Below are positions 1,436 to 17,675 of a stretch of 42,236 bases of DNA, piece after piece; the stretch's first letter is position 1; every line of letters begins with the position of its first letter. The notes under the pieces were generated by a model. It ran no database searches and was not told the DNA's origin. It saw nothing but the letters and a program-made list of their open reading frames with translations. The DNA is from Gemmatimonadota bacterium (GTDB lineage Bacteria; Gemmatimonadota; Gemmatimonadetes; Palauibacterales; Palauibacteraceae), in the NCBI GenBank assembly GCA_022360695.1, contig JAKSCH010000456.1, forward strand, positions 1 to 42,236, given 5' to 3'. The translations under genes and the position numbers were made by a program.

Positions 1436-1561
1436 TTTGGTTGACTAGTTGTGGGTGATCGGTTGTCGGTTACCCAGTCGCGCGTTCTCGGTGTGGCACC
1501 TCCGCGCGCAACCACTGTGTCCCGAGCCCCCCGAGAGGCTCGAGCGAAGGAGGACGGTACG

Positions 1562-1795
1562 ATGAGGCAAATCACTAGCGGACCTGTGAAGGTGTGGTTG
1601 TCGCGCGTCGCAGTCGCGCTGCTCATTGCAATAGCCTTCAGCGCCGTGGGGTTAACTGTTCAACAGGCTCGGGCGTCGGTGTTCCCATGTCACAATGACT
1701 CGTGCAACGCCGGTTCGAACGCTCACTGCAAGCTGTTGGACTGCGACTATTGCGACCAGCAGGAACTAACGTGCAAGGAAAGCGGTCTGCAGTAG
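1562..1795 (+). CDS. small exported Cys-rich peptide precursor (77 aa; 6 Cys in the C-terminal 39 aa)
   Basis: AAGGAGGA lies just upstream of the ATG at 1562. The signal-like N-terminus VWLSRVAVALLIAIAFSAVGLTVQQARA is followed by SVFPCHNDSCNAGSNAHCKLLDCDYCDQQELTCKESGLQ. The antisense ORFs here are Arg/Pro-rich junk. Codon usage is atypical for the window. Confidence 0.6.
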   Translation: MRQITSGPVKVWLSRVAVALLIAIAFSAVGLTVQQARASVFPCHNDSCNAGSNAHCKLLDCDYCDQQELTCKESGLQ

Positions 1796-1920
1796 CATGA
1801 ACAGACTCTGAGGCTCAGGTTCAGCCTGGGTCGGGGACGAGTCGGCCGCTCCGGCCCGGGCGGCCTCGGGTGCGGTTGAGGCAATCGGTCCAGCACGCCG
1901 TGCGGAAGGAGGCAGGACGC

Positions 1921-3219
1921 GTGTGGAAGCACGGAACGATGTTGAGGGACCGCAGGTTGTACGCGGGTCGGACTAGCGCTTGTGGTGACAACAGCGGCAA
2001 GCTGAGCGAACTGCCTCGGATCGTCGCGGCGATCTCCAGTGCAATCGTGGTTGCCTGTGGTGCCGAGAGGAGCGAAGGGAAGACGGCTGCGCGGGCGGAA
2101 GTCACGCGAGTGGGAGATACGACGATCGTCACGACGTACGGTGAGGTGGTGCCGCGCGCCGCGGACGAGGTGGAGCTGCTTTGGCGCAGTCCGGAGTTGG
2201 AGAATCCGGTCGCCCTCCTGCACGCTGGAACGCGGATCGTTGTTGCGGATCGCGACAGAGTGCATTTGCTGGCCGATGACGGCGAGCACCTCCGAACCGT
2301 CGGACGCGCCGGAGAGGGGCCCGGTGAGTTTCTTTACATCGTTTGGGTTGGCCGCCTCGGGCAAGATACCATCGCAGTCCACGATGCAGTGAACCACCGG
2401 CTGTCGTTCATGACGCGCAACGGAGACTACCTCGGATTCGCTTCGATGCGCCCGCCCCGCTCGTACGCCAATCCGCTCAACGCGAAGGAGCGCGGCGGGC
2501 CGGCGCGCGGGTTCGTTGCAGTCGACGGAGGAGTGATTTCGTTCTGGCGCGATGGTGTCTTTTCGGACGGCTCGCGGCCGACCCGCACGGCTCTCGTATG
2601 GACGGATTGGGTGTCGGACACGGCGACTGTTCGTCGGACGTGGGACGGCGAGCGGTGGATCGGTGAAGGGCCGATCGTCGTACCGAGGGAGCTATTCGGG
2701 CCACGCGTGATCTCGGCAATCGCAAGCGACGGGCGGGTGGCCGTGGGTAATGGTACGGACTATTGCGTCACGATTGAGGCGACCAATGGCGTGCCGGTCC
2801 GGAAGGTGTGTCGCAACCGTACAGCGGCGCCGGTAGGAGACGGGATCCGCAGTCCGGATTTGCGGCGAGTCCGAAGTGCGCCACGTCGAGAGGCCCTAGA
2901 GGTGCTTGTTCGACGCCAAGAGTTGCCACGTCGGCTGCCGCACTTTGATCGGCTGTTCTTCGATGAGCAGGGATGGTTGTGGGTGCGTACGCTTGGCACC
3001 GAGCTGTCTGAGGTTTCTCCATATCTGACGCATGACGTCCCGAGCTTGGTTCCCGATTATCGGATGTGGGACGTATACGACGTTGGCGGCGCGCTTGTCG
3101 CCACGATCTCGCTCCCGTCGAACTTCGAGCCACAGACAGCCACGCCGGCGCGGATCTACGGGTTTGTGGAACTGTCTTCGGGTGAAGTCGCCATCGGCGC
3201 TCTTGCCTTGCCGTTCTGA
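1921..3219 (+). CDS. lipoprotein, 6-bladed beta-propeller (TolB/NHL-like) family
   Basis: AAGGAGG lies 9 nt upstream of the GTG at 1921. Lipobox-like AISSAIVVAC. The GRAGEGPGEF motif and repeated strand-like segments are typical of the bacterial 6-bladed beta-propeller family. Only one clean motif was seen, so the family call is moderate. Confidence 0.6.
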   Translation: MWKHGTMLRDRRLYAGRTSACGDNSGKLSELPRIVAAISSAIVVACGAERSEGKTAARAEVTRVGDTTIVTTYGEVVPRAADEVELLWRSPELENPVALLHAGTRIVVADRDRVHLLADDGEHLRTVGRAGEGPGEFLYIVWVGRLGQDTIAVHDAVNHRLSFMTRNGDYLGFASMRPPRSYANPLNAKERGGPARGFVAVDGGVISFWRDGVFSDGSRPTRTALVWTDWVSDTATVRRTWDGERWIGEGPIVVPRELFGPRVISAIASDGRVAVGNGTDYCVTIEATNGVPVRKVCRNRTAAPVGDGIRSPDLRRVRSAPRREALEVLVRRQELPRRLPHFDRLFFDEQGWLWVRTLGTELSEVSPYLTHDVPSLVPDYRMWDVYDVGGALVATISLPSNFEPQTATPARIYGFVELSSGEVAIGALALPF

Positions 3220-3243
3220 GCCCGCGGCGCGTACGGCTAATTG

Positions 3244-4023
3244 ATGATCCGGGGGAAGACGACCGGCGTCGTTGCAGCATGCGTGCTCGCCTGTCTCGCA
3301 GTGAGCTCGCTGGAGGCCCAGGACGACCGTGGATGCGCAGTGTACGGCGTCGTTGTCGATGAGGTTTCTACGAGGGGCATCGGTGGCGCTTCGGTGTGGG
3401 TCGAGCGCGGCGATGGCGAGCTGGTGGTGGGGAAGGCCACGTCGAAAGACGGTGCATTTTCGTTCGACCTCGACGATTGCGGATTCACCGTCGTCCGGGT
3501 GGATATGCTTGGGTACGAGTCGATGCGACAGTCGGTCGAACTCGAAACGGGCCAGGTCGAAGTTCAAATGACCCTGCGGCTTCCAAGGGCGCCTCTTCAG
3601 CTTCAGGAGCTCGCCGTCGCGATCCCACGGTCGCTGCGTCTGCAACGAGCGGGGTTCTACGCTCGCAGAGCGTGGGTCGAATCGACCGGTCAGGACTACG
3701 CGAACTTCTTCGGTCCTGATGAAGTTAGAAGTAGAGCGCGAGCGCAACACACCGTTGGCAGGATTGCTCTATCATCGCGCATCCGGACCGTCTATAGTGG
3801 CTGTCGACCCTCCGTCTATCTAAACGGCCGGCGGATCGCGGCGCCGACGCGACGCGCACTGTGGGAACGCGTCGACAGAGCCGTTAGTACGTCAGACGTG
3901 GAAGGCATCGAAATCTATCGAGCATTGTCGGTTGCCGTGCCAGAGGAGTTTCGGGACTACGATTCGACGCGGTGCGGTGCCGTCGTTGTCTGGACGAAGG
4001 AGGGGGGTGCCGCAACGCCTTAG
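3244..4023 (+). CDS. exported carboxypeptidase-regulatory-like (CarboxypepD_reg) domain protein with TonB-plug-like C-terminal region
   Basis: Signal peptide GVVAACVLACLAVSSLEAQ. VYGVVVDEVSTRGIGGASVWV...TSKDGAFSF is CarboxypepD_reg-like. The C-terminal VEGIEIYRAL...GAVVVWTKEG resembles a plug-domain end. Confidence 0.7.
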   Translation: MIRGKTTGVVAACVLACLAVSSLEAQDDRGCAVYGVVVDEVSTRGIGGASVWVERGDGELVVGKATSKDGAFSFDLDDCGFTVVRVDMLGYESMRQSVELETGQVEVQMTLRLPRAPLQLQELAVAIPRSLRLQRAGFYARRAWVESTGQDYANFFGPDEVRSRARAQHTVGRIALSSRIRTVYSGCRPSVYLNGRRIAAPTRRALWERVDRAVSTSDVEGIEIYRALSVAVPEEFRDYDSTRCGAVVVWTKEGGAATP

Positions 4024-4063
4024 GTGGAGTCTGGCGACGTGAACACGATGCACTTCGCGCAGC

Positions 4064-4492
4064 TCACCGGCAGATCTCGCGGAAGGACTCGACGCTCGCG
4101 AAGACCGCCGCGCCCTCGTGCCACCGACGCTCTTCGCCTACCCGCGCCTCGATCTGGGTCTCGGCGCGCTCCCGCAGGTTGTCGCAGTCCACGCGCAGCA
4201 CCGCGCTCGTGCCTTCCCTCAACTGGTTGAGGATCCCGTCGCTGTTCTTGAACGAGAGCTCGGTACGAATCGGGCGCGTGTCCATCCAGACGCGATTATC
4301 GGGCGCGCGGATCGAGCTCACATTGAAGAAATACGGGTGCGTCATCACCTGCGTGAACGTCCCACCGAGCTCGAAGACGACGCCGGGCGCCGCGTTCTCC
4401 GTCGGGGCCGCCGCCCCCGTCCGTGCCAGCCCGGATGTCAGCAGCGCGCCGAGCGCCACGAACAGCACCGCGGTAACCTTCGACTTCTGCAT
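4064..4492 (-). CDS. exported hypothetical protein
   Basis: Signal peptide MQKSKVTAVLFVALGALLTSGLA. Normal amino-acid composition, unlike the overlapping frames. Lies downstream of the heme-c/monooxygenase-like gene on the same strand. Confidence 0.55.
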   Translation of the reverse strand: MQKSKVTAVLFVALGALLTSGLARTGAAAPTENAAPGVVFELGGTFTQVMTHPYFFNVSSIRAPDNRVWMDTRPIRTELSFKNSDGILNQLREGTSAVLRVDCDNLRERAETQIEARVGEERRWHEGAAVFASVESFREICR

Positions 4493-4610
4493 TCTCGGCC
4501 CCCTTGAAAGCGAATGGGCGGGCTGTCTTCACGACCGGCCCGCCCATATCGCGAGGTTCTGGCGTGGCGTCGGACACCGGCGAGGCGCCGGCGTCGACGC
4601 ATCGGAGGCG

Positions 4611-6023
4611 TTAGGGATTCTCGTCGTTCGAGCTCGATGAGCTCTCTTCCGCTTCCGCCAGCTCCCTCGCCGCCTCGCGCGCGGCCACCAGCTCCTCGAA
4701 CTCGGTTTGATCCAGATAGGTCACGTCGACCCACAGGTGCGCCATCTCATCGACCGTGCGATCCCCCCAGTCGACCCACTGCTCGGGGTCGGGGTTGTTG
4801 GGGTTCTCGGCCGTGTTGTCGTGCCACGCCGTGATGACCAGCGTCGTCCCCGCAGGGAGGAGCGGCGCGGCGTCGTCCTCGTAGATGTAGTTGACGTGCC
4901 AATTCCACTGGAAGTTGTCGACCTGGCTGATCAGCTCTTTGCGACCGTCCGGATAGATTGCTTCGAGCGACATCGCCTTGCCGCGCATGTGCATGTGCGG
5001 CTGGAAGTTCTCGAGTCGAGCCGGCCAGCGGAGCACGTGGTGGTCCTGGGTCACCGCGATCTGGTTCGGCGGGATGTCCAGACCTGTCGCGCCCGTCGCG
5101 TTGAAGAACATGAGCCGCGTCCGGTTGTCGGGCTCCTGACCCTTCGGGTAGAACCACACGCCCAGCTCGACGTAGCTGTCCACCACCTCTTTGCCCATGG
5201 CGTGGAGGTGGACCTCCCAGCGGATCCGGGAGTTCGGGAGCATGATCTTGCCCGCGCCGTCCGGGAAGACTTCGCCTTCCTTCCCGACCGCCCACTCCAT
5301 GAACAGCCCGCCGCCGCCCATGGCGCCGCCACGCGTGCTCGCCTGGACGATGCTCGCGGCCATCGGACTGTCCTCCTCATCCTGCTCGAGGAAGGCGAGT
5401 ACGTGGTGGGTGATCGTCCGCGCGTCGTTGCCGGCCGGCTTGATCTCGATCGCCTTGACCCAGCGGGGCTCGGTGAGACCGGTCGGCGTCACGGGTCGCC
5501 ACCACTTGTCCTGCGTCTCGGCCGCGAGCGTGTAGGGCTCGGAGGCGACCACGAGATCCGGCTCGCCGTACTCGTCGGCCAGCCGCCAGGCGTTCGGATC
5601 CGGGAACTCCGCGGGCGGCGGGAGGTCGGCCGGGGCGCCCTCGACGCGACCGCCGTCGATCCAGGCGACGATCGTCTCGATCTCTTCGTCGGTCAGCCCG
5701 CGGTCGTTCTTGAACTCCTGGATCCCGACGGTTCGATCGATGTGCCACGGTGGCATCACCCGCTCGGTCACCTTCTCGCGGATCCGCGAGGCCCAGCGGT
5801 ACGTGTCGCGGTACGTGAGGAGCGACATGGGCGCGATCGAGCCCTCCTGGTGACACTCCTGGCAGTTGGTCTGGAGGATCGGCATCACGTCGCGGTTGAA
5901 CGTGACCGCGGCGTCGCCCTCCTGCGCCTGGAGTCCGGTCGCGCCCGCGACCGTCGTGGCGACGAGCGCTGCGCCTGCGGTCGCGATCCAACGCGTCGCG
6001 CGCTTCCGCGTGTCGTCTCTCAT
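4611..6023 (-). CDS. exported c-type cytochrome domain fused to a PHM/DBH-like (copper type II ascorbate-dependent monooxygenase-like) domain
   Basis: Signal peptide, then FNRDVMPILQTNCQECH (CxxCH) and MPPWH. Later come ITHHVLAF, WEVHLHAMGK, QPHMHMRGKAM and DEMAHLW, arranged like the CuH (HH..H) and CuM (HxH..M) ligand sets. The CDS itself is very solid. The domain call is made from memory. Confidence 0.8.
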   Translation of the reverse strand: MRDDTRKRATRWIATAGAALVATTVAGATGLQAQEGDAAVTFNRDVMPILQTNCQECHQEGSIAPMSLLTYRDTYRWASRIREKVTERVMPPWHIDRTVGIQEFKNDRGLTDEEIETIVAWIDGGRVEGAPADLPPPAEFPDPNAWRLADEYGEPDLVVASEPYTLAAETQDKWWRPVTPTGLTEPRWVKAIEIKPAGNDARTITHHVLAFLEQDEEDSPMAASIVQASTRGGAMGGGGLFMEWAVGKEGEVFPDGAGKIMLPNSRIRWEVHLHAMGKEVVDSYVELGVWFYPKGQEPDNRTRLMFFNATGATGLDIPPNQIAVTQDHHVLRWPARLENFQPHMHMRGKAMSLEAIYPDGRKELISQVDNFQWNWHVNYIYEDDAAPLLPAGTTLVITAWHDNTAENPNNPDPEQWVDWGDRTVDEMAHLWVDVTYLDQTEFEELVAAREAARELAEAEESSSSSNDENP

Positions 6024-12600: not shown

Positions 12601-13338
12601 ATGACGACGAGCCTCCTCGTCGCGCTCCAGGTAGAGCCGAGCGGAGGGCTCGCTTCGGCGTTGTCGGACAACCCGCTCCTCGCCATCGGGGCGCTCTTCG
12701 GGGCGGGTGTCCTCACCAGCACGAACCCGTGCATCTACCCGATGATCCCGATCACGGTATCGGTGATATCGGGCACGGCCGGAGAAAAGCAGACCCGGGG
12801 TCGCGTCGTGGGCCTGACGCTGACGTACGCGATGGGTCTGGCGTTGTTCTACGCCCTCCTCGGCATGATCGCCGGGCTGTCCGGCTCCGTGTTCGGGTCG
12901 ATCGGCGCGAGCCCGTGGGCGCTGTTCGCGATCGGCAACCTGCTGCTCTTCTTCTCGCTCTTCATGCTCGATGTCTTCCCGGTCCCGATCCCGAAGCGGC
13001 TGTTGGCCTGGGCGAGCGACCGGGAGGGTGGTTCCTACAAGGCCGTATTCGTGCTCGGCGCGACGTCGGGCATCGTCACCGCTCCGTGCGGCGCCCCCGC
13101 GTTCGCCGTCGTCCTCACCTGGGTGGCCGCGACGCAGGCCGGCCTCATGGGATTCGTGTATCTGTTCGCGTTCTCGCTCGGGATGACCGCGCTGCTGATC
13201 GTGGTCGGATTGTTCTCGGGCGCGTTGGCCGTGCTCCCGAAATCGGGCACCTGGATGATCTGGATGAAACGGCTCGCCGCGCTCATCATGATCGGGATGG
13301 CCGAGTTCTACCTCATGCGCGCGGGGTACTTCCTTTGA
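12601..13338 (+). CDS. ccdA: cytochrome c biogenesis / thiol:disulfide transporter CcdA (DsbD transmembrane-domain family)
   Basis: Polytopic membrane protein with the two conserved Cys in LTSTNPCIYPMIPI and IVTAPCGAPAF. An alternative GTG start at 12586 overlaps the upstream stop. Confidence 0.85.
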   Translation: MTTSLLVALQVEPSGGLASALSDNPLLAIGALFGAGVLTSTNPCIYPMIPITVSVISGTAGEKQTRGRVVGLTLTYAMGLALFYALLGMIAGLSGSVFGSIGASPWALFAIGNLLLFFSLFMLDVFPVPIPKRLLAWASDREGGSYKAVFVLGATSGIVTAPCGAPAFAVVLTWVAATQAGLMGFVYLFAFSLGMTALLIVVGLFSGALAVLPKSGTWMIWMKRLAALIMIGMAEFYLMRAGYFL

Positions 13339-13868
13339 TCGACCGACGTCCGTGGCGAGCCACCGTGGCCTCGCTGTTCATCCTTCTCGCGGCCGGGCTG
13401 CCGCTGCGGGGACAGACCGGTGTGGGACAGGTCAGCCTTCCGATCGGGACGCCCGGCCCGGACGCGGCGGTCCAGGATCTCGAGGGCAACGACGTGGGGC
13501 TGCTCGACTACGCGACGGATCGCCCTACGCTCATCGAGTTCTGGGCCTCCTGGTGCGAGCAGTGCGAAGCGCTCCAGCCGCAGATCGATCAGATCCAGGA
13601 AAGCTGCGGCGAGCAGGTGAGCGTGGTCGCGGTCGCGGTCGCCGTCGCCCAGTCGCTCCGTCGCGTGAGACGACACGCCGAGGCGCACGGCGCCGGCTAC
13701 CCGTTTCTATGGGACGCCGCGGGAGACGCGGTGCGCGCCTACGAAGCGACGACGACATCCATCGTCGTCATCCTCGACGAAGTCGGCACGATCACGTATA
13801 CCGGCGTCGGCCCCGACCAGGATCTCGTGTCCGCGGTCGGGGCCGTCGCGCCGGAGTGCTCGCCATAG
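13335..13868 (+). CDS. TlpA-family periplasmic thioredoxin-like protein (WCEQC)
   Basis: The TTG start at 13335 overlaps the ccdA stop (TTGA). Signal or anchor segment ATVASLFILLAAGLPL. LIEFWASWCEQCEALQPQI is a thioredoxin-fold CxxC motif. Confidence 0.8.
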   Translation: MIDRRPWRATVASLFILLAAGLPLRGQTGVGQVSLPIGTPGPDAAVQDLEGNDVGLLDYATDRPTLIEFWASWCEQCEALQPQIDQIQESCGEQVSVVAVAVAVAQSLRRVRRHAEAHGAGYPFLWDAAGDAVRAYEATTTSIVVILDEVGTITYTGVGPDQDLVSAVGAVAPECSP

Positions 13869-13877
13869 AGGGGCGGT

Positions 13878-14462
13878 CTAGGGGTCGACGGGCTCCGGCG
13901 TCACATCGTCGATGATCGCGGCCAGCTCGTCGTACGCGGCCGGATCGACCTGGTTGAACTGCGGGATCACGCCGGCGATCGTCTGATCGGGTCCGACCAC
14001 GATCACCGCCCTGCTGTCCACCATGTCGTTGTCTCTCAGTCCTCCGCCGAACGCCGCGTACGTCGCCCCGTCGTTGTCGGCATCGCTCGCGAACAGGAAG
14101 GGGAAGTCGTCGTCCTTCAGCCACGAGGCGAGCTCTTCGACCGAGTCGTTCGAGATGCCGATGAGGACGACGTTGCGGCCCTCGTTGAACAAGCTTGCGT
14201 ACTGATCACGGTACGCTCTCATCTGGACCGTTCAGCCAGGCGTCCTGACGCGGAAGAAGAACGCGAGGACGACGGTCTCGCCCTCGTAGTCGCTGAGCCG
14301 GATCGCGTCCTGGAGCGCCCCGTACCGGGTGGCCCCGGGGAGCGCGAAATCCGGCGCCGGCTGTCCTACGGCTAGCAAGCCGGAGTCCTGTCCGGCCGCC
14401 GGCGCCGCGGACCCGGCCGCCAGGGCACCGGCGATGGCGCCCGCCATAACGAATCGCCGCAT
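13878..14462 (-). CDS. bcp: exported BCP/PrxQ-type peroxiredoxin with in-frame UGA (candidate selenocysteine) at the peroxidatic position
   Basis: Track ORFs 14232-14642 and 13878-14222 share a frame. They are separated only by the TGA at 14232-14234 plus 3 codons. The joined product is MRRFVMAGAIAGALAAGSAAPAAG...GETVVLAFFFRVRTPG-U-TVQMRAYRDQYASLFNEGRNVVLIGISND... This parallels the BCP motif TPGCTVQ..RD. Confidence 0.75.
14207..14226 (-). other. candidate bacterial SECIS-like hairpin downstream of the in-frame UGA
   Basis: On the mRNA this reads UGA + 15 nt + GCGUAC-CGUGAUCA-GUACGC. The stem is a perfect 6 bp and the 8-nt loop contains GU. No covariance model was run. Confidence 0.45.
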
Positions 14463-14598
14463 GCAAGCGTCCTTTCGCATGTGGTAGCTGTGTACGGCAC
14501 GGTGATTCCGCGGGGCGTCGCGCGCCAGAGGGGTCGCCCGGCAGGCCCGCCTCGCCCGCCACGAATGCGCGGCCCGGGTTCGCGGCCGTTCGTCGGTT

Positions 14599-15771
14599 TC
14601 ACGCGTCCCAGATCTCCTTGAGCACCCGGGCGAAGTTGCCACCCAGGATCCCGCGGATGTGGTCGTCCGTGTAGCCGCGTCGGATCAATCCCTCCGTGAG
14701 GTCGAAGCACCGCTTCGGGTGGTCGATGCCTTCGATGTCGATTTTGTCACGAAACGCGTAGCTGTCCTTGTACCCGGCCCGCAGCCGCTCGCTCTGCTCG
14801 GCGGGCAAGTCGTCGTAGCCGTGGAGATCGATGTCGGATCCGATGCCCAGGTGCTCGACCCCGATCAGGTCGCGCACGTGATCGTAGTGATCGAGGAAGT
14901 GCTCGATCGTGGTGGGCTCGTCCGGTTTCACGAACATGCGGACGCCGGTGATTCCCATGATCCCGCCCGTGCGCGCCATCGCGCGGATCGCCTCGTCCGT
15001 CTTCGTCCGGGGGTGCCCGCCCGCCAGCGATCGCACGTTCGAGTGCGTGAACAGCACCGGTTGCCGAGACACGGCACATGCATCGAGCGTCGTGCGGTCC
15101 CCGCAATGCGAGACGTCCACCGCCATCCCGACTTCGTTCATCGCCTCCACGATCGACACGCCGAAATCGCTGATCCCTCCATCGACCCGCTCGGTCGCTC
15201 CGTTGCCGATCGCGTTCCTGGAGTTGTAGGTGAGCTGCGAGACGCGCTGACCCAGCCCGTGGAATAGCGAGACGTCCGCCGGCGTGCGGAAGTGGGTCGC
15301 GTTCTGGATGCCGATCAGAATGCCGATCCGCTCCGAGCCGTGGACACGATCGAGATCCTCCGCCGAGTCGATACGCACGAACACATCGGGTCGATTCGCG
15401 ATCGCGGAGTGATAAGCGCCGATGTACGCGAGGACGTTCGCGTGCGCCGCCTCCGCGCTTCGTCCACCGACACCGGCGGCGATATGGAACACATCGATCT
15501 CGGATCCGCGAAACTCCTCCAGGTCCGCCGCGTTGAATCCATCGAGACTCGGACCCCACCGATCGCGCGTTTCGCCGTTGATCGTGAGCAGGGCGAGCAT
15601 GTCGATCACGAGCGAGCCGGTGACGAGGTCGATACAACGCTGCGAGTACTCTCGCGTCGATGTCGCGAACAACCGATGTCGGCGTCGCAGCACCGCCGGA
15701 AACATCAGGCCGACGCCCGATGCCGCCGTGGTGCGGACCATGTCACGTCGAGTCCAGTTGTCGGGCTTCAC
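14599..15771 (-). CDS. membrane dipeptidase (peptidase family M19), Tat-signal-like N-terminus
   Basis: WTRRDMVRTTAASGVGL is a twin-arginine-like leader. VSQLTYNSRNAIGNG, VDVSHCG, VLFTHSN and GIGSDIDL match renal-dipeptidase-family metal-ligand regions. Confidence 0.9.
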   Translation of the reverse strand: MKPDNWTRRDMVRTTAASGVGLMFPAVLRRRHRLFATSTREYSQRCIDLVTGSLVIDMLALLTINGETRDRWGPSLDGFNAADLEEFRGSEIDVFHIAAGVGGRSAEAAHANVLAYIGAYHSAIANRPDVFVRIDSAEDLDRVHGSERIGILIGIQNATHFRTPADVSLFHGLGQRVSQLTYNSRNAIGNGATERVDGGISDFGVSIVEAMNEVGMAVDVSHCGDRTTLDACAVSRQPVLFTHSNVRSLAGGHPRTKTDEAIRAMARTGGIMGITGVRMFVKPDEPTTIEHFLDHYDHVRDLIGVEHLGIGSDIDLHGYDDLPAEQSERLRAGYKDSYAFRDKIDIEGIDHPKRCFDLTEGLIRRGYTDDHIRGILGGNFARVLKEIWDA

Positions 15772-15906: not shown

Positions 15907-17160
15907 TTGACTACGAGCGATCGAGCGCAGAGCTGCCTGATCCCCGAAGCCGCGGAGCGGGAGGGGAACGACCCCATCTTCGCGCTCCACGGTGAGGCGG
16001 TACGTCGGATCCAGTCGGGTGAGGCGATCCTCAACAGCACGTTGGGCGCGCTGATGGACGACGACGGGCGTCTCGCCGTCATGCCTTCGGTGTCCGAGGC
16101 GATAGACCGGGTTCCTCGTGAAGCCGCGGCGGGATACGCGCCCATCGCGGGCGACCCGGCGTACGTCCGCGCCGTGATCGACGACCTCTACGGGGGGACG
16201 AGCTTCGCCGGAGATGCGGTGGCCGTGGCGACGCCGGGCAGCACCGGCGCGATCCACCACGCCGTGCTCAACTTCCTGGAACCGGGTCAGGCCGCGCTGA
16301 CGCCGAGCTACTTCTGGGGTCCGTACGACACGATCTCGACCCACGCCCGTCGAGCGGTCGAGACGTTCAACATGTTCGATGCCGAGACGCGTCTCGATCT
16401 CGACGCGTTCGCCGACGCGCTCGGCGGTCAGCTCGATGGTCAAGGTCGCGCGCTCGTGTTGTTCAACTTTCCGTGCAACAACCCGACCGGCTACTCGCTC
16501 GACGATGCCGAGTGGGCCGCCGTCGCCGACATCGTGCGCGACGCCGGGAAGCGGGGACCCGTCGCGTTTCTGCTCGATCACGCATACGCGAAGTTCGGGG
16601 ACGAGGAGTCGAACCGCTGGGTCGATCACGTGCCGACGATGCTCGAGACGGCGACGGTGCTCGTCGGCTGGACGGTGTCGAAGTCGTACGCCCAGTACGG
16701 CGCCCGCGTAGGGGCGCTCGTGGCGCTCCACGCCGATCGCTCGGAGCGCGAGCGAATCGCGAGCGCGCTCAGCTTCTCGTGTCGAGCGACCTGGTCGAAC
16801 TGCAACCACCTGGGGCTCCTGACGACCGCGGAGCTGCTCACCGATCCGGAGCTCCGCGAGCGCTCGGTGCGGGATCGCGCTCGGATGATCGAGCTGTTGG
16901 ACCAACGCGTGGGCGTGTTCAACGAGCTGGCGGCCGACGCCGGTCTCGAGTATCCGCGCTACGAAGGCGGGTTCTTCGTCGCGGTGTTCACCGATGACGG
17001 GGAGGCGACGGCCGCGGCTATGCGGGAGACGGGCGTGTACGTGGTGCCCATGGAAGGCGCCGTTCGAGCGGCCCTGTGCGCGACGCCCGTCGCGCAGGTC
17101 CCCCGGCTCGTCGACGCGCTCGCCGAGGGGGTGATGGCGGCCCGCGGAGCGACGGTATGA
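15907..17160 (+). CDS. class I pyridoxal-phosphate aminotransferase (aspartate/aromatic type)
   Basis: GYAPIAGDPAYV, FNFPCNNPTGYS and WTVSKSYAQYGARVGAL (PLP-lysine SKS..YG.R.G) are AspC/TyrB-like. Confidence 0.9.
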   Translation: MTTSDRAQSCLIPEAAEREGNDPIFALHGEAVRRIQSGEAILNSTLGALMDDDGRLAVMPSVSEAIDRVPREAAAGYAPIAGDPAYVRAVIDDLYGGTSFAGDAVAVATPGSTGAIHHAVLNFLEPGQAALTPSYFWGPYDTISTHARRAVETFNMFDAETRLDLDAFADALGGQLDGQGRALVLFNFPCNNPTGYSLDDAEWAAVADIVRDAGKRGPVAFLLDHAYAKFGDEESNRWVDHVPTMLETATVLVGWTVSKSYAQYGARVGALVALHADRSERERIASALSFSCRATWSNCNHLGLLTTAELLTDPELRERSVRDRARMIELLDQRVGVFNELAADAGLEYPRYEGGFFVAVFTDDGEATAAAMRETGVYVVPMEGAVRAALCATPVAQVPRLVDALAEGVMAARGATV

Positions 17161-17675
17161 CCTCGGCCGGGTCGCGCCTGTCGATCGGCTTGATGCTCTC
17201 CGCGCTCGCCGCCTGCGCGACCGACGTGCCGCTCACGGACGCCGAGAAGCTCGCCCGCGTTCGGACGATGGCGGACGATCTGGTCGAGCGGTTCCCGACC
17301 GTCGAGACCATCGACGTCGAGGAGGTGGGTCGACTGCTCGAGTCGGACGATGTCGTGTTGATCGATGTCCGCCCCGAGGACGAGCGCGCGGTGTCCGCGA
17401 TCCCGGGCGCGATCACGGCGGAGGAATACGAGTCGAACGTCGCCCGCTACGCGGACGTCACGGCCGTCGCGTACTGTACGATCGGGCACCGGAGCTCCGA
17501 GTACGCGGAACGACAGGCGGTCGCCGGCCGTCGTGTGCTCAACCTCCGCGGAAGCATCCTCGCCTGGACGCACGCGGGAGGCCCGCTGGTAACCGCGTCG
17601 GGGCCGACGATGCGACTCCACGTGTACGGCTCGGAGTGGGATCTCGCGCCCGAGCGGTACCAGACGATCTGGTGA
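17157..17675 (+). CDS. rhodanese-domain lipoprotein
   Basis: The ATG overlaps the upstream stop (ATGA). Lipobox LSALAAC. VLIDVRPEDE...IPGA and the active-site loop YCTIGHRS (CxxxxR[ST]) are present. Confidence 0.8.
   Translation: MTSAGSRLSIGLMLSALAACATDVPLTDAEKLARVRTMADDLVERFPTVETIDVEEVGRLLESDDVVLIDVRPEDERAVSAIPGAITAEEYESNVARYADVTAVAYCTIGHRSSEYAERQAVAGRRVLNLRGSILAWTHAGGPLVTASGPTMRLHVYGSEWDLAPERYQTIW

Follow-up and report, generated by a model that had tools for sequence, protein, structure and literature searches.

A predicted selenocysteine-containing peroxiredoxin of the BCP/PrxQ type in Gemmatimonadota, with a gene that is split in annotation at an in-frame TGA codon

Background

Peroxiredoxins with selenocysteine (Sec) in a TxxU motif are established in the literature, with 43 COG1225-type sequences from the Sargasso Sea, 253 in the Global Ocean Sampling (GOS) data and 78 organisms in a survey of 2016 (PMC1088965, PMC2398784, PMC5029168). 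A 2026 review lists the Sec-peroxiredoxins and gives the motif as PxxxTxxU (PMC13188914), and among the work cited there is that on the PrxU protein from Eubacterium acidaminophilum (Söhling et al. 2001). Here we discuss a locus in a Gemmatimonadota bacterium of the Palauibacteraceae (assembly GCA_022360695.1), for which a stretch of 42,236 nt, positions 1 to 42,236 of contig JAKSCH010000456.1, was analysed and is referred to as the window. We conclude that 14462..13878 on the minus strand is very probably one functional gene for an exported BCP/PrxQ-type peroxiredoxin, in which an in-frame TGA is decoded as Sec.

As the TxxU Sec-peroxiredoxins have long been documented the enzyme type is not new, and the first-pass annotation that drew attention to the locus had rightly treated the family concept as known. 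What is new is local, namely the Gemmatimonadota lineage, the systematic mis-annotation, an aromatic residue in place of Pro at position -7, an invariant putative selenocysteine insertion sequence (SECIS) and the neighbourhood of ccdA and tlpA-like genes, and it may be that the published metagenomic peroxiredoxin sets include this clade. In the literature we found no link between Gemmatimonadota, Palauibacterales or Palauibacter and selenoproteins.

Results and discussion

One reading frame on both sides of the TGA

Two open reading frames (ORFs) are called on the minus strand at this locus, 14232..14642 and 13878..14222. They are in one common frame, and between them there is only the TGA (14234..14232) followed by ACG GTC CAG (T-V-Q), after which comes the ATG of the downstream ORF. 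The frame and codons were re-read and are as the first-pass annotation had given them, with a read-through product of ...VVLAFFFRVRTPG-[TGA]-TVQMRAYRDQY.... The likely start is the ATG at 14462 (MRRFVMAGAIAGALAAGSAAPAAGQ...), which has AGGA 9 nt upstream, and the stop is the TAG at 13880..13878; the TGA is the only in-frame stop before that TAG. The product from this ATG has 194 residues and reads ...ETVVLAFFFRVRTPG-U-TVQMRAYRDQYASLF... around the predicted Sec. The TGA had been placed on the peroxidatic Cys by comparison with the E. coli BCP active site, and this stands: the sequence given for that site was correct, the actual bcp product reading ...YFYPKAMTPGCTVQACGLRD, and BLASTP against E. 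coli BCP pairs TPG-C-TVQ with TPG-[TGA]-TVQ.

This is the sole in-frame TGA in the 42-kb window with coding-type third-position G+C content (GC3) on both sides. Other TGA codons in the window are ordinary stops, ending Pfam-confirmed genes for an amidohydrolase, an M19 dipeptidase, an aminotransferase and a rhodanese. With TGA serving as stop for the neighbouring genes and only one in-frame TGA in 42 kb, there is thus no reassignment of the code. Nor did the 80 species loci described below contain a second recurrent family with an in-frame TGA and a two-sided coding signal.

Conservation of the TGA and of both halves

A tblastn survey, in which each GTDB species was represented by one genome, gave 80 loci, all of them from Gemmatimonadota (Palauibacter and Longimicrobiales), with 68-84% amino-acid identity and matches that cross the TGA. 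The TGA is in the identical column in all 80 orthologues, which represent 80 distinct GTDB species. A scan of 80 further metagenome contigs from soil, sediment and groundwater (JGI) gave 82 family genes, and 81 of these have kept it. Divergent TGA forms and Cys forms, five of each, were also retrieved as DNA, and the TGA is found in the divergent forms L084, L090, L091 and L092 and in the second gene of L085.

In the 44 codons upstream of the TGA the mean pairwise nucleotide diversity is 0.138, 0.086 and 0.431 at codon positions 1, 2 and 3 respectively, and for codons +13 to +60 the corresponding values are 0.151, 0.165 and 0.426. Across the species there are no stops in either flank other than in the TGA column, and no frameshifts. 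Diversity concentrated at third positions, together with the lack of further stops, shows that both halves are translated in this frame and under purifying selection.

These data bear on the alternative that the locus is a pseudogene carrying a nonsense mutation, or that a TGC or TGT codon has been miscalled as TGA. One contig by itself leaves an error possible, and it is true that gene callers and RefSeq annotate just the 114-aa downstream piece. However, the same TGA is present in 80/80 independent species genomes and 81/82 metagenomic genes, and both flanks show purifying selection (third positions at about 0.43 against 0.09-0.17) with no more stops or frameshifts. The halves have not decayed, which had been named as a point to check, and the pseudogene or error explanation is effectively refuted, with a probability that we regard as negligible.

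The protein databases show the same break. A search with the window product gave 828 relatives, and the best 120 of these are nearly all fragments of 114 aa whose first residue is the Met four codons past the TGA, some being RefSeq entries named "peroxiredoxin family protein" from Candidatus Palauibacter. Among these best 120 matches there is one full-length protein, P0001, with 190 aa and 70% identity, and no full-length U-containing record from any source. As had been foreseen for standard gene callers, the locus is mis-annotated, since RefSeq/PGAP (P0011, P0027) and JGI/IMG have the 114-aa piece alone, named "peroxiredoxin family protein" or "peroxiredoxin". When P0001 was the query of an exhaustive search without a profile, 2460 relatives were obtained. 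Many of the representatives of the 50%-identity clusters are fragments, either with their end at query residue 73 or with their start at residue 78, and are thus split at the same codon.

One could take these database entries at face value and propose two separate genes, one for an exported 76-residue peptide and one for a 114-residue cytoplasmic protein from the ATG at 14222, acting apart or reassembling. There is indeed an ATG 4 codons past the TGA, and there are hundreds of 114-aa calls in the databases. However, the Met is also conserved within full-length Cys forms (C-T-[VI]-Q-M), and is thus a residue of the family and not a start. The lack of a Shine-Dalgarno sequence for the downstream half, reported in the first-pass annotation, is confirmed, as there is none in GGCTGAACGGTCCAGATG. 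Such a split would also part strand β3 from the catalytic helix, lose the catalytic residue and put the halves in different compartments, and the frame is kept across the TGA in every species. We consider two genes extremely improbable.

A SECIS-like hairpin after the TGA

The hairpin that had been seen after the TGA is 20 nt long, with a 6-bp stem that starts 15 nt past the UGA and an 8-nt loop, in which the GU has positions +26/+27 if the count starts from the U of UGA. In the SECIS of E. coli fdhF the loop residues are G23 and U24, that is with GU at +23/+24. The loop GU in the window is one codon further out than in fdhF, at a distance that we take to be inside the bSECISearch range.

The codons after the TGA are ACG GTC CAG ATG AGA GCG TAC CGT GAT CAG TAC GCA. 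In 81 species the synonymous codon entropy at codons +5 to +12 is about 0 bits, against 1-1.9 bits in the flanks, and the fixed codons, AGA (73/73), GAT (81/81), CGT (76/81) and GCA (79/81), are rare ones in this 68% G+C genome. Third-position diversity is 0.024 across the hairpin and 0.43 in the flanks. The RNAalifold consensus structure is the 6-bp hairpin. Its folding energy in the window is -8.5 kcal/mol (z = -3.4), and other Sec-form hairpins have -11.8 and -14.2 kcal/mol (z about -2.9). In contrast the equivalent region of the Cys forms gives -2.4 to -5.1 kcal/mol (z above -0.7); the hairpin is absent, and the same AYRDQY peptide is encoded by GCC TAC CGC GAC CAG TAC or similar. The hairpin is thus at SECIS distance, under extreme synonymous constraint and missing from the Cys forms, and as described below it has one covarying pair, all of which bears out the first-pass observation.

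The 165 TGA-form genes give 120 distinct 54-mers. Both 6-nt arms of the stem are the same throughout, and only five of these 54-mers have a loop other than CGUGAUCA. A 7th pair, at position 18/39, covaries, with C:G in 36, G:C in 24 and U:A in 5, and 5 mismatches elsewhere; the observed level of pairing was reached in 0 of 10000 permutations. In the Palauibacter clade position 18/39 is A·A. The window has a single copy of the 20-mer, also if up to 3 mismatches are permitted, with 0 expected. Rfam gave nothing at gathering thresholds, and around the hairpin only chance-level matches with E > 6.

Synonymous compensatory double changes (for example GCA...TAT or TAT...CAA) are permitted by the coding, and none is seen across about 50% protein divergence. 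The invariant stem could reflect sequence-specific recognition or recent horizontal spread.

A longer SECIS was considered and rejected: folded over 76 nt, the window sequence does not surpass its shuffled versions (z = 0.07), the outer pairs 17/40 to 14/43 are without consistent pairing, and RNAalifold retains the 6-bp hairpin alone.

A peroxiredoxin fold and active site

Pfam AhpC-TSA (PF00578) matches residues 32-163 over profile positions 1-122 of 124 (E = 1.5e-22), a near-full match, so that the domain runs uninterrupted across the TGA. In the PDB the top sequence matches come from Aeropyrum pernix (BCP, 2cx3, E = 5.8e-11), from Burkholderia (5enu) and from M. tuberculosis (BcpB, 5epf), and in the alignments to these three the TGA column is that of the peroxidatic Cys. 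Thr is present at -3 of the TGA (T-x-x-U), as in the T/S-x-x-C of peroxiredoxins. The Arg of ...VDSRAVIVV... aligns with the conserved peroxiredoxin Arg of 2cx3 (vakRAVFIV) and 5epf, and the active-site Arg of strand β6 (R148) is invariant in both family alignments. For structure we used the natural Cys orthologue P0001, which is 70% identical to the window product. The AlphaFold (AF2) model of P0001 has pLDDT 83 and pTM 0.79, with residue 74 opening the helix 72-83, after the strand 60-65, and the best Foldseek matches to it are BCP structures, with target-normalised TM of 0.81-0.84.

There is no Cys in the whole protein, and the sequence U-T-V-Q-M-R has Met and Arg at +4/+5, where the first-pass annotation had already noted the replacement of the second BCP Cys. 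With no Cys, and Arg at +5 instead of the resolving Cys of BCP, the protein would be a 1-Sec enzyme and depend on an external reductant. A peroxiredoxin-like thiol:disulfide oxidoreductase selenoprotein, with UxxC or UxxU, was considered and is ruled out by U-T-V-Q-M-R and the lack of Cys: these redox motifs are absent, and what the protein has is TxxU, the motif of true peroxiredoxins. The score with NCBIfam NF006960 (thioredoxin-dependent thiol peroxidase) is 57.3 bits against a cut-off of 140. Judged by domain and active site the protein is a predicted peroxiredoxin, but no equivalog of E. coli BCP.

Cys forms, position -7 and paralogues

The alignment of Cys orthologues proposed at the outset places Cys in the TGA column, both in P0001 (70% identity) and in the full-length homologues P0121-P0158, which have 32-45% identity to P0001 and all have Cys there. 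In the 13 Cys forms aligned this Cys is invariant, and the Cys-form codon in the column is TGC. P0001 reads ...FFFRVRTTG-C-TVQM... around the Cys and its gene is at L083 1246..1818.

The residue at -7 also differs between the two forms. In the 165 Sec forms it is F in 104, Y in 56, P in 4 and I in 1. Among the Cys forms, 6 of 7 DNA loci and nearly all protein homologues have Pro. The lone Cys form with Phe at -7 is P0001, whose gene still has the SECIS. This L083 Cys form (TGC) falls inside the Sec clade and has retained an intact hairpin, GCGTACCGTGATCAGTACGC; it is on a single 2-kb contig. Sec may have been replaced by Cys very recently here, or the TGC may be an artefact of assembly or consensus, and in the former case it would fit the "fossil SECIS" pattern that is on record for recent conversions of this type (PMC1794560).

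Some genomes have more than one copy of the family. Cys and Sec copies are on one contig in L085 (712..1305 and 2751..3365) and L113 (~497 and ~1095), a second Sec paralogue with ...FFFRARG[RS]G-U-TVQ... is present in L044 (~12307) and L051 (~2016), and L104 has two tandem Sec copies at 1536..2742.

Predicted export

Read by eye, the N-terminus has a positive n-region, a hydrophobic core and an A-x-G/A-x-A site, and comparable N-termini are present in all full-length and N-terminal-fragment homologues. A Tat signal was considered because of the "MRRF" start and rejected, as the RR is not conserved in homologues. The coordinates of this and the other features are given in Table 1.

Table 1. Coordinates of the peroxiredoxin gene, its elements and the adjacent genes in the window
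Feature	Position	Strand	Details
Complete gene of the predicted selenoprotein, a BCP/PrxQ-type 1-Sec peroxiredoxin precursor	13878..14462	minus	194 codons including Sec77; AhpC-TSA domain spans the TGA
UGA codon 77, read as selenocysteine (predicted), motif T-P-G-U	14232..14234	minus	peroxidatic-Cys column
SECIS-like hairpin	14197..14216	minus	5' arm 14216..14211 GCGUAC; loop 14210..14203 CGUGAUCA; 3' arm 14202..14197 GUACGC
Predicted N-terminal signal peptide	14391..14462	minus	~24 residues, MRRFVMAGAIAGALAAGSAAPAAG followed by QDSG; cleavage site approximate; read by eye
TlpA/ResA-like membrane-anchored thioredoxin gene	13335..13868	plus	WCEQC motif; Pfam Redoxin, AhpC-TSA, Thioredoxin
CcdA/DsbD-type transmembrane electron transporter gene	12601..13338	plus	start ATG 12601; Pfam DsbD_TM, E = 1.8e-41

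The adjacent ccdA and tlpA-like genes

The peroxiredoxin gene and the tlpA-like gene are convergent, with 3' ends 9 nt apart. These convergent neighbours are conserved, the tlpA-like gene being adjacent in 68/80 species and ccdA in 67/80, and other neighbours vary. Because this convergent ccdA-tlpA synteny is conserved, it suggests that the TlpA-like protein may be the periplasmic reductant of the peroxiredoxin. The tlpA-like gene has matches to the NCBIfam models for ResA, StoA and TlpA, all below cut-off.

The ccdA stop (TGA 13336..13338) overlaps the TTG start of the tlpA-like gene (13335..13337), which suggests translational coupling. The best NCBIfam match of CcdA is to the DsbD-like part of the model for TsoB, a rhodanese/DsbD fusion-like selenoprotein, and with 156 bits against 805 this is domain-level similarity only. 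There is a separate rhodanese-domain gene at 17076..17675.

Selenocysteine machinery and the nature of the inserted residue

E. coli SelA, SelB and SelD gave no tblastn match in the window and the 80 species loci, and ARAGORN found no tRNA-Sec in the window or retrieved loci. That sel genes were not found at these loci is what would be expected if they are unlinked. The single SelB-like tblastn match in the 1.5 Mb searched, in L104, was rejected, as it is a bifunctional CysN/CysC by NCBIfam. This CysN/CysC gene (sulfate adenylyltransferase / APS kinase) is at 2817..4643 on a soil contig, directly downstream of the tandem Sec-peroxiredoxin genes.

The orthologue L049, a TGA form, is on contig MPNE01000007.1 of Gemmatimonadetes bacterium bin94. 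For bin94 (accession MPNE) one SelA (COG1921) and one SelB (COG3276) are reported, and likewise for bin43, a second Gemmatimonadetes bin (Slaby et al. 2017, Table S4).

The alternative to be weighed here is that the UGA is decoded as a standard amino acid, Cys, Trp or Gly, either because the hairpin stimulates programmed read-through or because the code has changed in this lineage. A downstream hairpin is in principle able to stimulate read-through, and the failure to find Sec machinery in the window and at the other loci would fit. Against this, a change of code is countered by the TGA stops of the Pfam-confirmed genes in the window, and the TGA is precisely in the column of the catalytic Cys, as is characteristic of Sec/Cys pairs. 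The distance and the loop G-U of the hairpin fit the bacterial SECIS pattern as we take it from fdhF and the bSECISearch model, and there is a metagenome-assembled genome (MAG) that bears an orthologue and is reported to have SelA and SelB. We thus think insertion of a standard amino acid very unlikely, and that the catalytic residue encoded by the in-frame TGA is almost certainly selenocysteine.

Several points weigh against our interpretation as a whole. The six core pairs of the stem are invariant and so give no covariation support, the hairpin is short at 6-7 bp, and the conserved peptide A-Y-R-D-Q-Y-A partly dictates its sequence. The window and the loci, the latter about 1.5 Mb in total (each of 16 kb or less), gave no selA, selB or selD and no tRNA-Sec. 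The canonical Pro of PxxxTxxC/U is Phe in the window (F-R-V-R-T-P-G-U; TTC, 14253..14255), and no NCBIfam model matches the protein at its cut-off. Export is predicted from a visual reading of the N-terminus. For the reductant, the assignment is based on convergent synteny and not on co-transcription, and the ccdA and tlpA neighbours are seen in only 11/80 metagenome loci, which are mostly short.

A possible mechanism

Taking the locus as a Sec-peroxiredoxin gene, we envisage that at UGA codon 77 the hairpin would act as a bacterial SECIS and recruit SelB·GTP·Sec-tRNA(Sec), so that Sec would be inserted and termination avoided. The precursor would then be exported to the periplasm via its N-terminal signal peptide. 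There the selenolate, placed at the N-terminal end of helix α2 and presumably activated by Thr-3 and the conserved Arg, would reduce H2O2 or organic hydroperoxides and be converted to the selenenic acid. This may in turn be reduced by the CxxC thioredoxin (WCEQC) of the TlpA/ResA type encoded next to it, which could be recharged from cytoplasmic thioredoxin through the membrane protein CcdA.

It is tempting to go further and see a distinct, uncurated clade of exported selenoperoxidases with the motif [F/Y]xxxTxxU, which would be the terminal peroxidase of a periplasmic reducing chain from CcdA to the TlpA-like protein; we put this forward tentatively, at a little below an even chance. If it is correct, facultatively aerobic marine and soil Gemmatimonadota would have a selenium-dependent extracytoplasmic peroxide defence, and a 20-nt SECIS core that is invariant over about 50% protein divergence would imply unusually sequence-specific recognition by SelB.

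Annotation and significance

At present the N-terminal piece is discarded in RefSeq, JGI and ENA records of hundreds of genomes and contigs. We suggest that a dedicated selenoprotein model, with the 20-nt SECIS as diagnostic, be used in annotation, as this would fix all of these records together. The locus leaves the understanding of Sec decoding and of peroxiredoxins as it was. Its value is that it documents probable use of selenocysteine in Gemmatimonadota (Palauibacterales/Longimicrobiales and soil relatives), and points to a periplasmic Sec-peroxidase/TlpA/CcdA module that can be tested. The association of Sec with Phe or Tyr, and of Cys with Pro, at -7 offers a natural experiment on the adaptation of a peroxiredoxin active site to selenium.

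Comparison with known systems

In the extracytoplasmic CcdA pathways, thioredoxins of the ResA, TlpA or Etrx type reduce periplasmic or cell-surface redox enzymes. The likeness here is an operon for a DsbD_TM/CcdA protein and a membrane-anchored CxxC thioredoxin beside the gene for a predicted exported redox enzyme. However, the proposed client is a 1-Sec peroxiredoxin and not a cytochrome c, a copper chaperone or Msr, and it is linked to the pair by convergent synteny only.

PrxU (NCBIfam NF040737, peroxi_PrxU) is similar in having Sec at the peroxidatic position. However, the window protein gives only 41.2 bits against the NF040737 cut-off of 270, and is thus not a PrxU orthologue but a member of a different peroxiredoxin subfamily; its closest relatives are BCP/PrxQ and it has a predicted signal peptide.

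With E. coli BCP and the PrxQ proteins (2cx3, 5enu, 5epf, 3hjp) it shares the fold, the conserved Arg is aligned and the TPG-C/U-TVQ block is identical; over 101 residues the mature window sequence and E. coli BCP have 34% identity. The differences are the predicted Sec for Cys, Arg at +5, the absence of Cys, Phe for the motif Pro, and a protein that is predicted to be exported where BCP is cytoplasmic.

A further parallel is the TxxU peroxiredoxin family (COG1225/PF00578). The window gene has in common with it the AhpC/TSA domain, Sec (here predicted) in place of the peroxidatic Cys and a hairpin of bacterial SECIS type a short way downstream, and also the widespread Cys-form homologues and a family that is common in marine metagenomes. 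In contrast to the published PxxxTxxU motif the window protein has Phe in place of the Pro, and it shares this aromatic character with its own relatives, as Phe or Tyr is found in 160/165 of the Sec forms.

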